Virus record (IMG/VR): IMGVR_UViG_3300043172_000501 | Span: 1 to 64,000 of that record | From: a virus | Strand: one strand, 5' to 3' | DNA length: 64,000 nucleotides | Part shown: positions 7,891-62,346 of the stretch, in pieces | Position numbering within the stretch: the stretch's first letter is position 1 | Layout of the letters: the number at the start of each line of letters is the position of its first letter | The notes under the pieces: generated by a model | Told to the model about the DNA's origin: nothing | Database searches by the model: none | The model's input: only the letters and a program-made list of their open reading frames with translations | Translations under genes and position numbers: made by a program

Positions 7891-8571
7891 ATGACAACTA
7901 ACAACAACAAGAAAAACAACAAAAAAACAACTACTCCAAAAAGACCAACTACTGCAGAAATCAAAGAAAAAACAGAAGCAGAAGCAATTGCAAAAATCGT
8001 AGCAGATGCCAAAAAGAAAAAAGAAGGTAAAAGTTTTGACCTAGTAGTTAAACACGGAAACATCTCAGATGGAGCAGGCGGAGAAATCGCCATTTCTATT
8101 GAATTGTTTTCAATCAAGAAAGAAGTTTTGAAAGTCATCGCTGACAGAATGAAAAAGTGTGAACTGACTAATGTAGAAATTTACAACCCCGTAGACATTA
8201 AAAAGCCAGAACATCAACGTGAAGTAATAACTTTAACAACTGAACATATCGCAGATTATAATCATAATTTCAGATCCAAAAAAGACGGAACTATCTGGCT
8301 TAAAGAATTAAGAACAATCTTAAGAGAAGCAAGAGAAGACAAACAAGGCGGTTCCCAACGCCAAAGAATGAACCAGAAGTTAGATAGAGTTCTAAAATCA
8401 ATCGAAAGCGCAATTGCAGGATACAAAAAACTTTCTACCAAAGATACTGAAGACGAAACATTGAAAGAGTTAGTTTCAAGACTATCCGCAACAAAAGCAG
8501 TCATTCTATCTCTATGTGAAACAGAAACTGCAACATTAGTTGCCTCTACAGAAAAGACTGGAGAAAAGTAA
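7891..8571 (+). CDS. hypothetical protein
   Basis: 226-aa ORF with genome-typical codon usage. Confidence 0.7.
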   Translation: MTTNNNKKNNKKTTTPKRPTTAEIKEKTEAEAIAKIVADAKKKKEGKSFDLVVKHGNISDGAGGEIAISIELFSIKKEVLKVIADRMKKCELTNVEIYNPVDIKKPEHQREVITLTTEHIADYNHNFRSKKDGTIWLKELRTILREAREDKQGGSQRQRMNQKLDRVLKSIESAIAGYKKLSTKDTEDETLKELVSRLSATKAVILSLCETETATLVASTEKTGEK

Positions 8572-48609: not shown

Positions 48610-48663
48610 CCTGTCCAGAAACAAATTACTTGAATTAAACCCTACTAGCCTTTATAATAAAGG
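48610..48663 (+). promoter_or_regulatory. sigma70-type promoter P3 with palindromic operator-like site
   Basis: CCTGTCCAG-11 nt-TTGAAT(48630)-17 nt-TATAAT(48653); CCTTTATAATAAAGG. Confidence 0.8.
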
Positions 48664-49798: not shown

Positions 49799-50170
49799 TC
49801 ATGGAACTATTTATCGGGTTAGTAGTGGGCTTATTCTGTGGCAGCATTCTCGTCAACATGTCGTGGAAGGCTACAATAAAATTCAACGCCGAGACTAACT
49901 GCGATTTATTAGTCGACGGGGAAAAATATAAAGTTAAGCTCAAGGAGAAGTACTGATTATGACTAAAAGAAACTTTGACATAAAAAAGATTCAGAAGAAA
50001 TCAGTCAAGACTGTCTGGAACCTAATGATAAGACAAATACAATATCAGCACAAAGGGATCTATATATATTACAGAGGTCATCTATTGCGTACAACAAAAA
50101 GAAGATCCCTTAGGATAATCTGTGAAGAAGAAAACTTAGTAACAGTAAAACAAATACTGGAGGCAATCAG

Positions 50171-51082
50171 ATGAAATACATTACACTCATCCTAATCATT
50201 TTAACTCTTGGCTGCTCTGGAGAGATGAGCCGAAGATATGTAGAGGTATCATATGGAACAGAACAGAGCGGAGACACAGGCACGAGCACTGGAGAAAATG
50301 AGATTAGAAGAGAGTGCGAAATCAATGGGCAGTGCGATACAAGAGGGCTTAGTTCCGATGGAGGACATAGTGGCCTGGATACTTCTACAGACACAGTCGC
50401 TGGTTCCAGTGACACAGGAACATCGTCAGAAATTGACAGCGGAACTTCAGGAATGGATAATGGCGGAAGCGACTCAGGCTGTTATGACGAAACTGGAGAA
50501 CTTCCATGTGGATATGATGACACCGGAGAAGATACCAGTATCATGGACAGTGAAACCGGAACAGAATCCGACACCGAAGCCGATACTGATTGGCAACATA
50601 CCGACACAGCAACCGAACATGTCGACACCGAAGCCAATGACACGGACACAAACCATGACACCGAGAATGATACGGAAAGCGAAACAGAAACAGGAAGCGA
50701 AGTCGCCGATGGAACTGACAGTGGATGGGGAACTGATTGGGACAGTGACACTTCCATGGGAGAAGACACAGAAGTAATAACTTTACTATGGGATGCTGAT
50801 GCTCATCTTCTTGTCACATGGACAGAAGGCTTAAACGCTTGCGCTCTCGTTGGCTGGCGATTACCCACTATTGAAGAGGCTCAATCTATTCTGATGTCAC
50901 CAACAGGTAATGGTTGCTGGTGGGATGAATCAATCTTTGGAGATTTGTGTTATGAAATCTGGACACGAAATCCTGCAATCCCTCCACCTTATAATCAGCA
51001 GACAGTAAACTTTGTCTCAGGTGAGAGTCGATACCATCCATACACAAAACAAAAATACGCACTCTGTGTGCTTTCAGTCTGA
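50171..51082 (+). CDS. lipoprotein with acidic D/T/S linker and C-terminal DUF1566/Lcl (C-type lectin fold) domain
   Basis: Lipobox LTLGC; TWTEG..AC...GWRLPTIEE, IWT, ALCV; GGAGG RBS. Confidence 0.8.
   Translation: MKYITLILIILTLGCSGEMSRRYVEVSYGTEQSGDTGTSTGENEIRRECEINGQCDTRGLSSDGGHSGLDTSTDTVAGSSDTGTSSEIDSGTSGMDNGGSDSGCYDETGELPCGYDDTGEDTSIMDSETGTESDTEADTDWQHTDTATEHVDTEANDTDTNHDTENDTESETETGSEVADGTDSGWGTDWDSDTSMGEDTEVITLLWDADAHLLVTWTEGLNACALVGWRLPTIEEAQSILMSPTGNGCWWDESIFGDLCYEIWTRNPAIPPPYNQQTVNFVSGESRYHPYTKQKYALCVLSV
50253..50777 (+). CDS. nested overprinted gene, paralogue of the 51319..51864 N-terminus
   Basis: GAGGT RBS; about 80 aa align with the 51319 ORF, with synonymous codon changes. 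Confidence 0.6.
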   Translation: MEQNRAETQARALEKMRLEESAKSMGSAIQEGLVPMEDIVAWILLQTQSLVPVTQEHRQKLTAELQEWIMAEATQAVMTKLENFHVDMMTPEKIPVSWTVKPEQNPTPKPILIGNIPTQQPNMSTPKPMTRTQTMTPRMIRKAKQKQEAKSPMELTVDGELIGTVTLPWEKTQK

Positions 51083-51094
51083 GGAATAATCAAA

Positions 51095-51313
51095 ATGAAA
51101 CGACAAGATATTTTAAAGAATATATGTTTCTGGGATATGCGAAACCCCGAATGTGCACAATTACACGGTTCTCAATTGCCCGATTCTAAATCTGAAGAAG
51201 AAGGTTGTCAATGTGGAAATTGTGCCGATGGCAAGACTAAACTCGCCCTCGCAATGCTAGATATGTCAGAAATGGTCTGCCGCACAAACTGTTTACTAAG
51301 AATGAGAGAATAG
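51095..51313 (+). CDS. small Cys-rich protein
   Basis: C..D.RNP...CQCGNC..GKTKLA. Confidence 0.6.
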   Translation: MKRQDILKNICFWDMRNPECAQLHGSQLPDSKSEEEGCQCGNCADGKTKLALAMLDMSEMVCRTNCLLRMRE

Positions 51314-51318
51314 ATACA

Positions 51319-51864
51319 ATGAGCGATACGCCAAACAAATGGGGACAACAATCAAAAGAGATTGAACGTCTAAAATTAGAAGAGAGTTCTAAGTCCGTGG
51401 CTGGAGCTATCACACAAGGGCTCGTCACATTAGAAGAGGTCGTGGCTCGTGTAGCAGAACTAGTATTAAAACCGATAGCTCATGAGGAAACATTATCAAT
51501 AATTACTAGAAGACTGACAGCGTGGACAGTGGAGCAGGCTACTCATAAATTATTAGAATCAGAAGTCTGGCCCCCACCAACCGATAGAGAAACTGATTAC
51601 GCAGCGCATGTCGAAGAGTTAGGTAACAGTGTGAGATCTAGCCTTGGTATAGATCCATCTTTATTAGGGCAATCATCAAACAGAGAAGAGTTTGAACCAG
51701 GAGAGCTAGTGTATTACCATCCGATAGCTGGTGAAAAAGAATATAAGAAACGCCCAGGAGTCATAATTAACTCAAGAGGTTCAGATATGTCTTATCGAGT
51801 AAGATTTAGAAATGAAAAAGAAAAAATAACCAATGACCTATTTTTGTCAAAGAGGTCATCATGA
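51319..51864 (+). CDS. hypothetical protein with C-terminal SH3/KOW-like domain
   Basis: FEPGELVYY...GVII...YRVRF. Confidence 0.65.
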   Translation: MSDTPNKWGQQSKEIERLKLEESSKSVAGAITQGLVTLEEVVARVAELVLKPIAHEETLSIITRRLTAWTVEQATHKLLESEVWPPPTDRETDYAAHVEELGNSVRSSLGIDPSLLGQSSNREEFEPGELVYYHPIAGEKEYKKRPGVIINSRGSDMSYRVRFRNEKEKITNDLFLSKRSS

Positions 51865-52523
51865 CAAGAGCAAAAGAACAAGCTAAGATGATTCAACAGA
51901 TAGAGCGAGAAGCCAGGCGAGAGGTAGAATACAAGAAAGGAGATCCTGTTCTCTATATGCCTGAACACGCAAGAGCTATGTACCTTGATGAAGATTGCAA
52001 GAAAGGGATTGTGTCTAGTGTTAATAAGAAGTGGGTATTCGTAAAATATGATTGTGCAGATTGCACGATGGTAACAGGCGACGAACCCTATACTGCACAG
52101 GCGACTGACAGAGCCGACTTAAGACTGATTAGAGATAAGACCTTAGCAGAACGATTAAAAGACCAACAGACTACCATATTGAAGCAGACAGTGGACATGA
52201 TGGAAGAAGGCATGTTCCTTGACGGGGAAGTGGTTTACTACAGAATAGAAAAAAGCTTTAGCAACAAACCATCTAACACCAACATGAGGGGTGTCATCAA
52301 CGGCAGTGGGCAAGGCGACTACTATCAAGTGCTGATGGATAGAGATAACAAGAACAGAACAGTCCATAAGAGTTATCTTAGCAGAAAGAATGAGACACCA
52401 GAAGAGATTGAAGCACAGAAGAGACGGAACAGTGAAGCGCTACACGTCAGAATGCGACAACGGGTGATAGATCATCCGTATTCAAAATTCATAAAGAAGA
52501 GAGAAAGTAAACCAATGTTTTAA
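51861..52523 (+). CDS. hypothetical protein with two SH3/KOW-like domains
   Basis: KKGDPVLY..GIVSSVN and DGEVVYY..GVING..YQV. Confidence 0.65.
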   Translation: MTRAKEQAKMIQQIEREARREVEYKKGDPVLYMPEHARAMYLDEDCKKGIVSSVNKKWVFVKYDCADCTMVTGDEPYTAQATDRADLRLIRDKTLAERLKDQQTTILKQTVDMMEEGMFLDGEVVYYRIEKSFSNKPSNTNMRGVINGSGQGDYYQVLMDRDNKNRTVHKSYLSRKNETPEEIEAQKRRNSEALHVRMRQRVIDHPYSKFIKKRESKPMF

Positions 52524-52536
52524 GAAAGGAAATGAT

Positions 52537-53046
52537 ATGAACAAGACAGCACCAAACCTAGACGGCGTAACACCATCAGCAATTATTGCAGGCCAAGCTA
52601 TTCAACAAATGTTAGCTGACAGCTCAGGCGGATGTACACCAGGTGAGATATTAAAGATGGCTGACACACCAGAACAAGAAATCAGATTAGGCTTTTTGGT
52701 TAGTGATGAGAACAAACCAGAAGGTTGGAAAAGAAAATTGTGCTTGCCTGATGGGGCACTCTTTGAAGATAAGAAAGGCAGGCGAGTTATTGTGTCCGTT
52801 ATGACATACAGTGATTGTCGACTATGGATACATGCGAGCATCAGCCATACCAAATCCAATAAACTACCACACTACAACGAGATAGCGATGCTGAAGAAGT
52901 ATTGGATAGGAGAAGATTACAAGGCTATCATGGTATTTCCTGAAAAGAAGTATCATGTCAATATCAATCAGAATGTCTTACATTTATTCTCATGCCTTAT
53001 GGAGAATCCACTACCAGAATTTTCCATGGGAACAGGTAGTATTTAA
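52537..53046 (+). CDS. conserved phage protein (H.S.S..LP...FP....VN...LHL family)
   Basis: WIHASISH, LPHY, VFPEKKYHVNINQNVLHL. Confidence 0.65.
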   Translation: MNKTAPNLDGVTPSAIIAGQAIQQMLADSSGGCTPGEILKMADTPEQEIRLGFLVSDENKPEGWKRKLCLPDGALFEDKKGRRVIVSVMTYSDCRLWIHASISHTKSNKLPHYNEIAMLKKYWIGEDYKAIMVFPEKKYHVNINQNVLHLFSCLMENPLPEFSMGTGSI

Positions 53047-53100
53047 TTTTAAAAAGAACTTGATTAGTAAAGTGGTACCATGTATAGTAAAGCCTGCTTT

Positions 53101-53163
53101 CCTAACCGTCGCTTATGGTACTGAACCCCCCACCGATAATAAGCGATGGTTAGGTTTTTTTTT
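53101..53163 (+). terminator. rho-independent terminator
   Basis: CCTAACCGTCGCTTAT/ATAAGCGATGGTTAGG stem followed by a T9 tract. Confidence 0.8.
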
Positions 53164-53185
53164 GAATAACAAAAGGACACACGCA

Positions 53186-53785
53186 ATGAGCAGTAGAAAA
53201 CACAAATCAACAAGAGACAAACGACGAGCCAAGAGTATCGCTAAGACAACAGCAGAGCGAAAGAACATGGCTAATCTATCACTAGACCAACGCCGAATAA
53301 TGGAGGTGAGAAATCAGAAGAGATCTTTAGCCAAGGAGATATTTGAGATAATCCAGGCGAGAGTCTTGAAGAAAGTATCAGCAGAACTTTACAGTGGATT
53401 AGTCGAATACGGGATGCTTGTGCCAGTAAGCCAAGATGCTGCAGAAACAATTAAGTCCATGGTAATGAAAACTATGAAACCATTGAACGACATCCCCGTG
53501 AAAGAACAGACGCCAACAATAATTAGTGAAGCAAGCTCTATACTACAAGAACTCCACACAGGTTTTATCGATGCTGGCTTATTGAAATTTGAACCGCCGA
53601 ACCTTATGCAGAGAGCACCTGACGCAAGAAAATATATGAATGGAGACATTGAAGCTGTGGACAAAGTGAACGATATGGACCACACTCTAATCACTCAATA
53701 TGTTAAAGAACAGATGAAACGAATGAAGAAGTCGGTACCAGGAATGCAAAAACTCTTAGTAGAACTGAAAGAAGAAGCTGCATGA
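53186..53785 (+). CDS. hypothetical protein
   Basis: AAGGA RBS and ATG 53186 downstream of the terminator. Confidence 0.65.
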   Translation: MSSRKHKSTRDKRRAKSIAKTTAERKNMANLSLDQRRIMEVRNQKRSLAKEIFEIIQARVLKKVSAELYSGLVEYGMLVPVSQDAAETIKSMVMKTMKPLNDIPVKEQTPTIISEASSILQELHTGFIDAGLLKFEPPNLMQRAPDARKYMNGDIEAVDKVNDMDHTLITQYVKEQMKRMKKSVPGMQKLLVELKEEAA

Positions 53786-57488: not shown

Positions 57489-59108
57489 ATGGCTACCACT
57501 AAAGAGATTGAAAAACTCGGTAAAGATAGAGTCCACACAAGATGGCATGCCACTAAAAAACATTTGATGACCCCCGACGACCTAGTAGGTCCTGACCAGG
57601 TAGAACCAGAAAAAAGAAAACGTGAACTACAGTTTAGAATGCAAGCTCTGCAAGAATTGCAACTAAGAAAAGCCCGGAGAAGTTTCCCAGCGTTTATGGA
57701 ATATTGTTTCGTCGACCCAGGGACAGGTAAAGCATTCGGGCAACAATGGTTCCATGATGAATGGTCAGACGCGATGGATACTGAAAATCGTTTGATTATT
57801 TGCGCCCCTCGTGACCATGGCAAAACCTCACAAATAATTGGACGAGTAATTTATGAATTAGGAAGAGATCCTAACTTGAGAATAAAGATTGCCTGTGCGT
57901 CTGATGGTAGAGCAAAAGAGAGACTGTTTGAGGTAAGTCAAAATATCCTATACAACGCAAGGGTAAAAGAAGTCTTTCCTCACATGGAGCCAGACCCCGA
58001 CGCTCAGTGGAATGTTCATAAGGTCCACGTTAGAAGAGATGCAAAACATCGTGACGCTTCAATCGAAGCTCTAGGAATTACTTCGACAGCAACCGGTGGT
58101 AGATGTGACCTACTGATAGCAGACGATGTAGTAGACAGAAGAAATGCTTTATCATTTCCTGCCCTACGAGAACAAATTAAAATGGCATGGTTAGCTGACT
58201 GGACAAACCTACTTGAGCCAGATTCTAAAGTTTGGGCAATCTGTACACTATGGCATAAAGATGATTTGAACCACATGTTGATGGACAACCCAGCCTACAC
58301 TACTCTGTTCTACGCCATCCCACCAGATTTCGGGAGCATGTGGACTGACAAATGGCCCGAGCATGAATTAAGAATGAGGCATAGGGAAATTGGTACCGTC
58401 GAGTTCAACAGGGGATTTCGTAATCAAGCAGTTGATACTGAGTCCCAGATGGTTCAAGAGTCATGGCTACATTACAAAGATTTGAATACCGACCCTGAGT
58501 TTAATGAACGGTTACCATTTATGGAATTTTTCACGAGCTATGATACAGCAGGCAGTCCGACCGGTTCAGCAAGTCAAGATTATTCATCAGCCTGTATCAT
58601 CGCAGTGGATATTGAACGCAAGAAAATATATGTGGTAGATGCTTGGCACCAAAGACTGACAATTAAAAAAATGGCATCGATAGTGAAGAAAGAAGCTGCA
58701 AAGTATTTTCCATTCAGGATACTGATTGAAAAGATTGGACAATCATCACTAGATGAATGGGTATTGAATGATTATCCAGAACTAACAGGCACAGTCGAAG
58801 TAACAAAACCGAGGGTCAATAAAGCCATACGACTATTAGCAGTTACGCCCTTGTTAGAAATGGGCAATGTTATATTTGATAAACATCTGGACCCTAATAA
58901 TTCACAATGGGAACCAGGCAGAGGATCTTTGATTCTTGAGCTAATGGACTTCCCTTTTTCAAAGCATGATGATATGGTTGATGCATTCTCGCAAGCATTA
59001 GATGGAGCCCGGAGATACTTTCTTGACGCTTGGGCATCTAAAGGCGAAAATGAAGTTGATATTTCTGTTGGTTTAGCAGAAGCAGATGACAGTCCATATT
59101 TATTTTAG
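57489..59108 (+). CDS. terL: terminase large subunit
   Basis: CAPRDHGKT, LLIADD, ICTLWHKDDL, SYDTA, DYS, FPFSKHDDMVDAFSQ. Confidence 0.95.
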   Translation: MATTKEIEKLGKDRVHTRWHATKKHLMTPDDLVGPDQVEPEKRKRELQFRMQALQELQLRKARRSFPAFMEYCFVDPGTGKAFGQQWFHDEWSDAMDTENRLIICAPRDHGKTSQIIGRVIYELGRDPNLRIKIACASDGRAKERLFEVSQNILYNARVKEVFPHMEPDPDAQWNVHKVHVRRDAKHRDASIEALGITSTATGGRCDLLIADDVVDRRNALSFPALREQIKMAWLADWTNLLEPDSKVWAICTLWHKDDLNHMLMDNPAYTTLFYAIPPDFGSMWTDKWPEHELRMRHREIGTVEFNRGFRNQAVDTESQMVQESWLHYKDLNTDPEFNERLPFMEFFTSYDTAGSPTGSASQDYSSACIIAVDIERKKIYVVDAWHQRLTIKKMASIVKKEAAKYFPFRILIEKIGQSSLDEWVLNDYPELTGTVEVTKPRVNKAIRLLAVTPLLEMGNVIFDKHLDPNNSQWEPGRGSLILELMDFPFSKHDDMVDAFSQALDGARRYFLDAWASKGENEVDISVGLAEADDSPYLF

Positions 59109-59939: not shown

Positions 59940-60253
59940 TGTCATCATTTCCAGAAAATAAAATTGTCGAATTACCACAAGAAGTATTAGGTACAGTAGA
60001 CACAGGCATAGTCCCTATTGACTTAAACCAAATGTCAGATAAAGGCTTTGAATATTTCAAAGGAACCGGCGCCGCATTTACCGCTACACTTCAAGGATCA
60101 GTTGCCGGCAAAGTTTGGACAGAGATCGATGATCTTACTTCTACAGCTCAAGGAGCAATTCCCGCACAATACAATTACGCCCGTGTTAATATCACAGTGG
60201 CTGATCTTCTAGGAACTGACACTACATTATATGTTTGTGGCAAGGTTCTATAA
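59939..60253 (+). CDS. hypothetical (possibly virion) protein
   Basis: Coupled by TAATG at both ends; beta-rich. Confidence 0.6.
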   Translation: MSSFPENKIVELPQEVLGTVDTGIVPIDLNQMSDKGFEYFKGTGAAFTATLQGSVAGKVWTEIDDLTSTAQGAIPAQYNYARVNITVADLLGTDTTLYVCGKVL

Positions 60254-62346
60254 TGCCCGCTAAAAAAAAGGCTACCAAAGAGGTAGAAATAAAGTTTGGT
60301 AAAGAGTCTATTCCCGACCAGGTTAATAAAGAATTACCCGTGGCAACAAGTGTAATGAAACTCATGGCAAAAGGACGAGCCCTAGCCGGTGACGAGGTTG
60401 AAGAATCCCAAGCCCTGGGTAGCCTAGCTCAAGCGAATGAGCAATGGGGAAAGCTCGGAGCAGTCGTTCCACCCTATGACCCTGAGTCATTATTGAATTA
60501 CATTGAACTTACTCCACACCTTCAGCCTTGCATTGAATCTATGTCACAAAATATTGACGGCTACGGATACCAACCAGTATTAGTTGAACCATGGATGGAC
60601 AATATAGAAACGACCGACGCAGAGAAAGCTATTGCAGAAGCTCTATTCATTGAAGATTGGGTATCATCAGAAGAAGAAGCTCTCACTGCAGAAACTGAAG
60701 TCGAAGAATTAAAATCAGAAATTGCCCAGTTAAAGAAGGCTAAGAAGCCACGGAAGTTATCTCAAGCTGTTGCAAGATTAAAAGAATTAGAAGATCAACT
60801 TGCTGAACCTAAGCCAGAACCACCTAGTCCTGTATCGCCAGAAGACTTAGAGGAGGACATGGACGATGAAGAGGAAAACGAGATTGATGCGGAATACAGG
60901 CAACGTGTGGCAGAAGAGCAAGAAAAACTTACGACACAAATCAAGCGAGAGAGATTCATGTTCGATGCCTGGTTTAAAAACTGTTGTTCAGAATCATCAT
61001 TCACTAAGCTGCGAAAAAATATGCGAGAAGACTACGAAGCACATGGATGGGGATGCATCGAGTTCAGACGTGACGGCTACGGAAGATTGAAAAGACTTAG
61101 TTATGTTCCAGCATACACAGTCCGTCCAATGCAATCAGAAGGCGAAGTGGTCGAAGTAGCAGAAGATGACGCCATCACACCACTATCAGAAAACAGAGAA
61201 GTAATAGTCAAACGACGCTTCAGGATTTTCGTTCAGATAGTTGGCAGTAAAAAAGTTTATTACAAATCACCTGGCGACCCTCGTGTCATCTCACGCACTA
61301 CCGGCAAATCTTATGACTCAGTGCAATCTCTAACACGATCTAAAGAGTCTAATAAGAACCCAGGAGAAGGTAAGAAGGCTGTACCAGCTAATGAATTACT
61401 CTGGATAGCACAACACGATCCAAAGACACCCTGTCCACCACCAAGATGGATTGGAAATCTCTTGGCAGTGCTAGGCGTTAGAGAAGCCGACGAAACTAAT
61501 TATTTCTATCTTGCAGATAACGCTATTCCTTCAGGGATTTTATTTGTCCATGGCGGAACAGTTCCCAAGGCTACTAAAGAACGATTAGAAAAAAGAATCA
61601 AGCATGAGATAGGCGGAGCTGAGAACTCAGGAAAGATACTGATAGTAGAAGCTAAACCGGGCGGGACATCTAATCCAAACGAAAAGACCATGCAACCGTC
61701 CTTAACTTTTCAATCATTGAGAGACACTGGAAACAGTGATGCACTCTTCACTGAATACGATAAAAGAAGTGCAGACCGTATAGGGGCATCATTCAGATTA
61801 CCACCAATGCTTAGAGGTTACACCCCGTCATCAATGAACAGAGCTACAGCCCTTGCGTCTCTTGGGTTTGCCGAGCAACAAGTATTTGAACCAGAACGAC
61901 AAGACTTTGATTGGCTTATGAATAAATATGTACTGCCAGAAATCAATATAAAACTTTGGAAATTTCAGTCCAATTCACCACCAACACGCTCCGCAGAAGA
62001 CATCGGAAAACTTGTTCAAGCAACAGCTCCTCAAGGCGGTTTAATACCAGCTGAAATAAGAGAACTACTTGCAGATGTTCTAAACAGACCACTCAAAACT
62101 ATCAATGAGCCGTGGACACAACAACCAATGCCATTGACATTATCTGGCGGAGGCGGGGCTGTCCCAGGGGCTGGTGGAGACGCAGACATAAATGAGAGGC
62201 TTCTAGCTATTGAAAATACAATTGCCCAAGTGGTCACTGAAGAACTAAGACAAGCTGGGCTTGACCTAGAAGTAACAACAGGATTTGTAGACTCAGGAGA
62301 TGCCGATTTCGGTAGTGACGGTGATGACAATGAAGAAAAAAGTTGA
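60253..62346 (+). CDS. portal protein (PBSX-like)
   Basis: PPYDPESL, NIDGYG, GWGCIEF.RD, PRWIG, N.IPSG, FRLPPMLRG, QVFEPE; follows the terminase. Confidence 0.9.
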   Translation: MPAKKKATKEVEIKFGKESIPDQVNKELPVATSVMKLMAKGRALAGDEVEESQALGSLAQANEQWGKLGAVVPPYDPESLLNYIELTPHLQPCIESMSQNIDGYGYQPVLVEPWMDNIETTDAEKAIAEALFIEDWVSSEEEALTAETEVEELKSEIAQLKKAKKPRKLSQAVARLKELEDQLAEPKPEPPSPVSPEDLEEDMDDEEENEIDAEYRQRVAEEQEKLTTQIKRERFMFDAWFKNCCSESSFTKLRKNMREDYEAHGWGCIEFRRDGYGRLKRLSYVPAYTVRPMQSEGEVVEVAEDDAITPLSENREVIVKRRFRIFVQIVGSKKVYYKSPGDPRVISRTTGKSYDSVQSLTRSKESNKNPGEGKKAVPANELLWIAQHDPKTPCPPPRWIGNLLAVLGVREADETNYFYLADNAIPSGILFVHGGTVPKATKERLEKRIKHEIGGAENSGKILIVEAKPGGTSNPNEKTMQPSLTFQSLRDTGNSDALFTEYDKRSADRIGASFRLPPMLRGYTPSSMNRATALASLGFAEQQVFEPERQDFDWLMNKYVLPEINIKLWKFQSNSPPTRSAEDIGKLVQATAPQGGLIPAEIRELLADVLNRPLKTINEPWTQQPMPLTLSGGGGAVPGAGGDADINERLLAIENTIAQVVTEELRQAGLDLEVTTGFVDSGDADFGSDGDDNEEKS

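Follow-up and report, generated by a model that had tools for sequence, protein, structure and literature searches.

Can a single segment of phage DNA be read as two proteins in two frames of the same strand, and what does it mean when a free-standing paralogue of one of these frames exists elsewhere in the genome? The question is raised by a locus of an uncultivated phage of ~97 kb, represented by the 96,656-bp IMG/VR virus record IMGVR_UViG_3300043172_000501, of which the first 64 kb (positions 1 to 64,000, hereafter the window) were analysed. An open reading frame (ORF), 50253..50777, lies there in the +1 frame wholly inside a lipoprotein gene, 50171..51082, at the coordinates that an earlier note on this DNA had given, and the first part of its product resembles the N-terminal domain encoded by a separate gene, 51319..51864. 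The pair is an overlap in the plain sense that both frames are open and each has its own start signals. Whether it is also a working same-strand nested gene pair, in which internal initiation at 50253 would yield a second protein beside an exported lipoprotein, appears evenly balanced on the sequence evidence. The earlier note had spoken of true dual coding, and this stays the leading reading, supported by the homology and by the non-random openness of both frames, yet short of proof.

The elements of the locus are as follows (SD, Shine-Dalgarno sequence; aa, amino acids; nt, nucleotides).

50171..51082, + strand: lipoprotein gene, 303 aa, with signal peptide and lipobox, acidic linker and Lcl_C domain
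50159..50163, + strand: SD GGAGG of the lipoprotein gene, 7 nt 5' of its ATG
50171..50215, + strand: signal peptide ending in the lipobox-like L-T-L-G-C (Cys15), as read from the sequence
50216..50779, + strand: acidic linker, G/S/T/D/E/N making up 77-78% of residues, T content 15%
50780..51070, + strand: Lcl_C (DUF1566-type) C-terminal domain
50253..50777, + strand: nested +1-frame ORF, 174 aa, wholly inside the lipoprotein gene
50243..50247, + strand: SD GAGGT, 5 nt 5' of the nested ATG 50253, within the lipoprotein codons E-V of EVSYG
50262..50486, + strand: nested block homologous to the N-domain of the paralogue, four helices predicted
50487..50777, + strand: nested tail, P/T/K/Q-rich, predicted to be disordered, without homology
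51319..51864, + strand: free-standing paralogue, 181 aa, with a helical N-domain (residues 1 to ~80) and an SH3/Tudor-like C-domain

If the pair works as supposed, one mRNA would be read twice. Ribosomes starting at ATG 50171 behind GGAGG would make the exported lipoprotein, and those starting at ATG 50253 behind GAGGT would make a cytoplasmic protein, composed of a four-helix N-domain, paralogous to that of 51319..51864, and of an unstructured tail that would only shadow the linker in the +1 frame. The linker, being disordered, would tolerate the demands of the nested frame, whose synonymous sites would in turn be spent on preserving a polar linker without stop codons. We infer translation of the nested frame, selection on it to this day and the role of its domain; our guess is that its product, a variant with the N-domain only, works together with the 181-aa paralogue or opposes it.

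The nested frame and its free-standing paralogue

The resemblance between the nested product and the paralogue, already pointed out in the earlier note, proved to be significant. BLASTP aligns them with 25 identical residues out of 76 (33%; 59% positives; E 6e-10), and their Smith-Waterman score of 109 compares with 35 +/- 6.5, and a maximum of 74, in shuffles (z 11). Scanned in six frames, the genome offers no other, unrelated window scoring above 48, and across its full 96,656 bp a six-frame search recovered these two copies of the helical domain only (E 3.5e-8). The homology spans nested residues 4-78, possibly to ~90, so that only the N-terminal part is common to both proteins. Their starts lie 17 (nested ORF) and 19 (paralogue) residues before a common LEES motif, and the sequences upstream of the two ATGs share no significant similarity. 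AlphaFold2 predicted four helices for nested residues 3-84 (predicted local distance difference test, pLDDT, 64-77) and the same helix pattern in the paralogue (pLDDT 44-58), both predictions being of modest confidence since they were made from a two-sequence alignment only. A model of the paralogue from the ESM Atlas gave weak matches (template modelling score, TM, below 0.5) to proteins with Tudor or integrase-type domains, and the nested model gave no match below E 0.1 against BFVD with Foldseek.

The search for homologues of the shared domain that the earlier note had called for returned none outside this genome. The helical domain had no homologue by full HMMER among 1.8 billion representative proteins; the domain and the paralogue retrieved only the query itself from viral contigs, metagenome contigs and phage GenBank records, and again from a word-indexed search of 5.8 billion proteins. 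They matched no family in Pfam, PHROGs or NCBIfam and had no relative in the ESM Atlas. A single extra HMMER match, to a 2170-aa protein matched in 10 stretches, was taken for low complexity. The nested ORF is absent as a called protein from public protein collections.

The GAGGT attributed to the nested ORF is indeed present, with a spacer of 5 nt. An SD of this class occurs at 46% of the gene starts of this phage vs 3.8% of 901 internal out-of-frame ATGs, and RNA folding around this start is nothing unusual (z -2.1). No hydrophobic segment occurs in the nested protein.

The outer gene would encode an exported lipoprotein. Its start overlaps the stop of the preceding ORF, 49959..50174 (ATGA), and its product begins with MK, an 11-residue hydrophobic core and L-T-L-G-C, which in our own reading fits a permissive PROSITE-style lipobox pattern and not the strict L-[AS]-[GA]-C; the homologues described below have MVAC and LAGC at the equivalent place. 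The linker is not explained by tandem repeats. Residues 204-300 match Lcl_C (PF07603) over profile positions 9-116 of 117 with E 9.7e-7 and 29.5 bits, which is below the gathering cut-off of 34.9 bits; the phage homologues match weakly too, and PF07603 is also listed for this protein in a precomputed annotation. The C-domain is likely a divergent, lectin-like Lcl_C member. Identical copies of the lipoprotein and of the paralogue were seen on 3 contigs that come from two sources, a finding that disfavours a frameshift introduced by assembly.

Signs of constraint on the two frames

The length of the nested ORF is not evidence for a gene, because all three stop codons need a T at the second position of a lipoprotein codon, a position where the hydrophilic linker avoids this base: only about a dozen linker codons, those for hydrophobic residues, have it there. 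In ordinary genes, about 15 stops are expected in the +1 frame per 175 codons. The 174-codon length is a by-product of T-poor acidic DNA, and only the first ~80-90 codons of the ORF are homologous to the paralogue; the remainder is P/T/K/Q-rich, predicted to be disordered, and likely a read-through shadow of the acidic linker.

The coexistence of two open frames is another matter. When the synonymous codons of the lipoprotein were resampled following genome usage, 3.3 stops were expected in the nested frame and the probability of none was 0.014. With the nested protein held fixed and its synonymous codons drawn at random, 7.3 stops were expected in the lipoprotein frame and the probability of none was 0.0004; in the first half of the overlap, G/S/T/D/E/N were then expected to make up 51% of lipoprotein residues vs 77% observed, and Lys/Arg 17% vs 4% observed. 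The openness of both frames is non-random under the genome codon-usage null. The equivalent alternative frame of the paralogue is interrupted by 5 stops within the first 79 codons; among ordinary 80-codon segments, ~1% (2/268) have an open alternative frame. The alternative frame of the paralogue is unusually linker-like (0.40-0.42 vs 0.32 +/- 0.05), and no residual linker signal was found in it beyond that predicted by its own composition.

Divergence between the nested block and the paralogue was 0.52, 0.34 and 0.68 at nested codon positions 1, 2 and 3, vs 0.45, 0.49 and 0.68 in a free-standing pair of the same identity that served as control. The best conserved class, nested position 2, coincides with the wobble position of the lipoprotein frame, the opposite of what constraint on the lipoprotein alone predicts. 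Substitutions between the two copies are conservative, with a total BLOSUM score of 132 vs 61 +/- 16 when changes were placed at random and 101 +/- 10 when random bases were put at the same sites. Permuting the synonymous codons of the lipoprotein frame lowers the codon score of the nested frame (z 2.4, P 0.0015), the maximum among 91 chunks of other genes being 1.8.

The earlier note had argued for selection on the nested frame from the different synonymous codons used for conserved residues. Different codons do encode 17 of the 25 identical residues, which points to purifying selection somewhere between the copies; it is not assignable to the nested copy, since constraint on the free-standing copy acts in that frame in any case. 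The genome-like codon usage seen in the lipoprotein frame, considered as a sign of age, turned out to be a by-product of the amino-acid sequence of the domain. Conservation of the nested frame and linker-likeness are locally anticorrelated (odds ratio 0.24, P 0.049), a result that fits a translated frame and a relic alike and was not used.

Ancestry of the linker and competing explanations

In the collections searched, the lipoprotein has no close relatives and only distant homologues of the same architecture. Related phages were identified by their terminase (52-67% identical), and three of them carry a lipoprotein of the same build, with a signal peptide and lipobox, a long D/T/S/G acidic linker and an Lcl_C-like domain.

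L005, 3457..4455: lipoprotein homologue, 332 aa, C-domain 40% identical (E 2e-8), upstream of a DUF7694 gene as in the present phage
G002 (L104, 1498..2403), - strand: lipoprotein homologue, 301 aa, domain profile E 1.3e-19
G004, end of the record: third lipoprotein homologue, partial

The helical domain was not found in any frame of the five related records (three complete). Since the related phages share the architecture and lack the domain, the acidic linker is ancestral in this lipoprotein family, and the helical domain is, as far as these sequences reach, specific to this genome. The suggestion in the earlier note that the lipoprotein had gained its linker by absorbing a gene out of frame is thereby contradicted.

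The (DT)n-type linkers of the relatives contain +1-frame ORFs of their own, of 137 aa with an ATG start in G002 and of 84 aa with a TTG start in L005, which consist of P/T/R or I/L/P repeats. L005 also has a +1-frame ATG at the equivalent Ser-Tyr position, preceded by AAGGGG at a distance of 8 nt. We take these ORFs as compositional by-products, the recurrence of a start-like site being curious. The G002 ORF seemed by eye to be similar to the nested domain, and BLASTP shows no similarity. The L005 linker further holds, at residues ~95-135, a Cys-flanked D/N/P-rich segment that resembles a metal-binding motif of the MopE type but has no Pfam match at E 0.01.

Against the leading reading stands the possibility, a serious one that we put somewhat short of an even chance, that only the lipoprotein frame is used today and that the nested ORF is an untranslated shadow or relic. 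Its similarity to the paralogue would then reflect shared DNA ancestry by out-of-frame remodelling, either of a paralogue-like fragment that entered the linker out of frame or of an out-of-frame linker copy from which the paralogue N-domain was built, and the ORF would stay open since the hydrophilic linker excludes T where stops would begin. Several results speak for this and against translation. When synonymous codons are permuted with local usage kept, the absence of nested stops is no longer significant (P 0.20), and the +1 frames of the homologous linkers, which lack the domain and show no similarity to it, run open through 77 (L005) and 153 (G002) codons. A frame-specific Markov model favours the lipoprotein frame except at 50291-50380 and 50591-50680, and codon usage does so as well: synonymous usage of the nested frame is off-frame-like, at -0.11 in its first half and -0.23 in its second, vs 0.13 +/- 0.07 in real genes and -0.13 +/- 0.09 in their +1 frames. 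Such usage is nevertheless expected under either explanation, because the synonymous sites of the nested frame coincide with position 1 of lipoprotein codons. In its second half the ORF resembles junk, with a tail predicted to be disordered, and no gene caller has ever called it. The nested ATG arises from Tyr-Gly, and part of the SD from Glu-Val, in the lipoprotein motif EVSYGTEQ, which has counterparts in QVNYGQDQ (G002) and GFSYE (L005), a motif too short to be statistically secure; the lipoprotein frame alone may hold the nested ATG and part of its SD in place. Should the motif prove genuine, the nested start owes its preservation in part to the lipoprotein frame, and no foreign fragment brought the start region with it. 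Out-of-frame insertion would be rare and still viable, judging from the few ordinary segments with an open alternative frame. The pairwise signals of selection, for their part, all contain the purifying selection that acts on the paralogue itself and, for want of an outgroup, are not assignable to the nested copy. The surplus of changes at positions 1 and 3 could result from selection that reshaped the lipoprotein frame. What a relic explains poorly is that the wobble positions of the lipoprotein are the most conserved and the substitutions conservative, that the lipoprotein frame is so heavily tuned, implying a long coexistence of the frames, and that this class of SD is rare at internal ATGs. 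By a rough rate argument made without an outgroup, an unselected SD, ATG and helical pattern should have decayed during that coexistence.

Within dual coding itself the direction of transfer may be debated. An outward origin, which we regard as unlikely, would be a sub-case in which the helical domain emerged de novo in the +1 frame that the linker naturally leaves open, remains encoded there with both frames under constraint, and was later copied to a site 1 kb away, where fusion to an SH3-like domain gave 51319..51864. It would account for a domain without homologue among the 1.8 billion representative proteins, the viral and metagenome contigs and the five related records, for an ancestral linker architecture with the nested start in apparently ancestral lipoprotein codons, for the similar distance of both starts from LEES with only the matured N-terminal part in common, and for the unusually linker-like alternative frame of the paralogue. 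However, the sequences upstream of the two ATGs are not significantly alike, composition alone explains the linker-likeness of that frame, the motif common with the relatives is short and insecure, and orphans are common among phage genes. In an inward origin, a fragment of a paralogue-like gene would have entered the linker out of frame, which needs the alternative frame to have been open at that time. Either route of transfer implies a period when both frames mattered. That the overlap is an artefact of two compensating assembly indels, or that a programmed frameshift fuses signal peptide, helical domain and Lcl_C, is in our view very improbable. Read between signal peptide and Lcl_C, the nested frame would plausibly yield a helical domain and, after it, a P/T-rich linker; an artefact, though, fails to explain the open and polar lipoprotein frame over 175 codons (the probability of 0.0004 given above), the identical proteins on several contigs and the in-frame acidic linker of the relatives, and recoding is countered by an in-frame TAG at 50241-50243, 9 nt before the nested ATG, and by the lack of a visible slippery heptamer at either junction.

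Genome setting and comparison with known systems

The 96,656-bp genome carries direct terminal repeats at the ends of the record, and the + strand holds every long ORF. The locus lies in a run of small orphan genes, with the large terminase gene (57489..59108, Terminase_6C) ~6 kb and the portal gene (60253..62346) ~9 kb downstream. A promoter-like site is found upstream of the locus at 48630-48658; another (TTGACA-17-GATAAT, 11/12 matches) at 50433-50461 falls within the overlap, 3' of the nested start, and promoter-like sites number 19 across the region vs 11 +/- 4 in shuffles. One neighbouring gene directly follows the paralogue.

51861..52523, + strand: neighbouring gene, 220 aa

Residues ~119-177 of its product resemble the C-terminal domain of the 181-aa paralogue (18/53 identical, 34%). 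Its N-terminal domain (~65 residues, 23-90) has a weak match to Phage_ProQ_C_like and recurs in 11 other viral contigs, at 44-63% identity over best segments of 62-97 aa in 10 of them and as a short 21-aa match in the eleventh; in L005 it stands alone as a 73-aa protein (7980-8201). In L005 the DUF7694 gene comes immediately after that for the lipoprotein. Here three genes, from 51095 on, stand between the two (first a 72-aa ORF, then the paralogue and the 220-aa gene), so that this block is an insertion here or was lost in L005. The DUF7694 gene, 52537..53046, is overlapped at its end by 92 nt of a 276-aa ORF, 52955-53785, whose real start is probably a later ATG.

The nearest known arrangement is that of the Rz/Rz1 spanins of lambda-like phages, which are embedded same-strand, +1-frame genes, each with its own start and SD and with one lipoprotein product; the outer gene encodes a type II membrane i-spanin, the inner one a short proline-rich lipoprotein, and both belong to a lysis cassette. 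The present pair likewise consists of a phage gene wholly inside another, on the same strand and in the +1 frame, with its own SD and one lipoprotein product. The roles are reversed, however, since the lipoprotein is here the outer gene and bears an Lcl_C domain; the nested product has neither a transmembrane segment nor the coiled-coil features of an i-spanin, and no lysis genes are seen adjoining, the neighbours being small orphans, the DUF7694 gene and SH3-like proteins. Neither an outer i-spanin gene nor an inner proline-rich lipoprotein nor a lysis cassette was thus found here. With the Lcl_C/DUF1566 lipoproteins (PF07603), the outer protein shares a GWRLPT-type motif in the C-domain and, as in the phage homologues, a signal peptide and a low-complexity linker, and it differs by its score below the gathering cut-off. 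We know of no member of this family with a second gene inside its linker.

A further parallel is offered by out-of-frame remodelled genes, whose alternative-frame regions are reported to be short and disordered (Watson, Lopez and Bapteste, 2021; PMC8788219). The likeness lies in a DNA-level homology between genes read in different frames (PMC8788219). In that model the original frame need not stay intact with a start of its own, whereas here it is intact with its own start, and the setting there is the E. coli pangenome instead of a phage (PMC8788219).

Overprinted viral genes make two frames out of one DNA, with a disordered product that relieves constraint and an asymmetric codon usage (PMC8227390, PMC3494269). 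The present locus is alike in its two frames, if both are read, in the disorder of one product and in the asymmetry of codon usage, and differs in that, of the two frames, the apparently ancestral one encodes the disordered product. It also teaches that the acidic T-poor linkers of this lipoprotein family yield long +1 ORFs for free, so that ORF length is no evidence for a gene there. Overprinted genes usually have no homologue elsewhere, and overlapping genes are usually recognised by one frame lacking relatives; here the genome itself holds an overlap-free paralogue of the nested frame, and with it an internal control for the effects of dual coding on a protein and its codons. The locus may be a snapshot of a domain moving, in either direction, between the overprinted and the ordinary state and, should the outward origin be true, one genome would hold the same young domain with and without the constraint of overlap.

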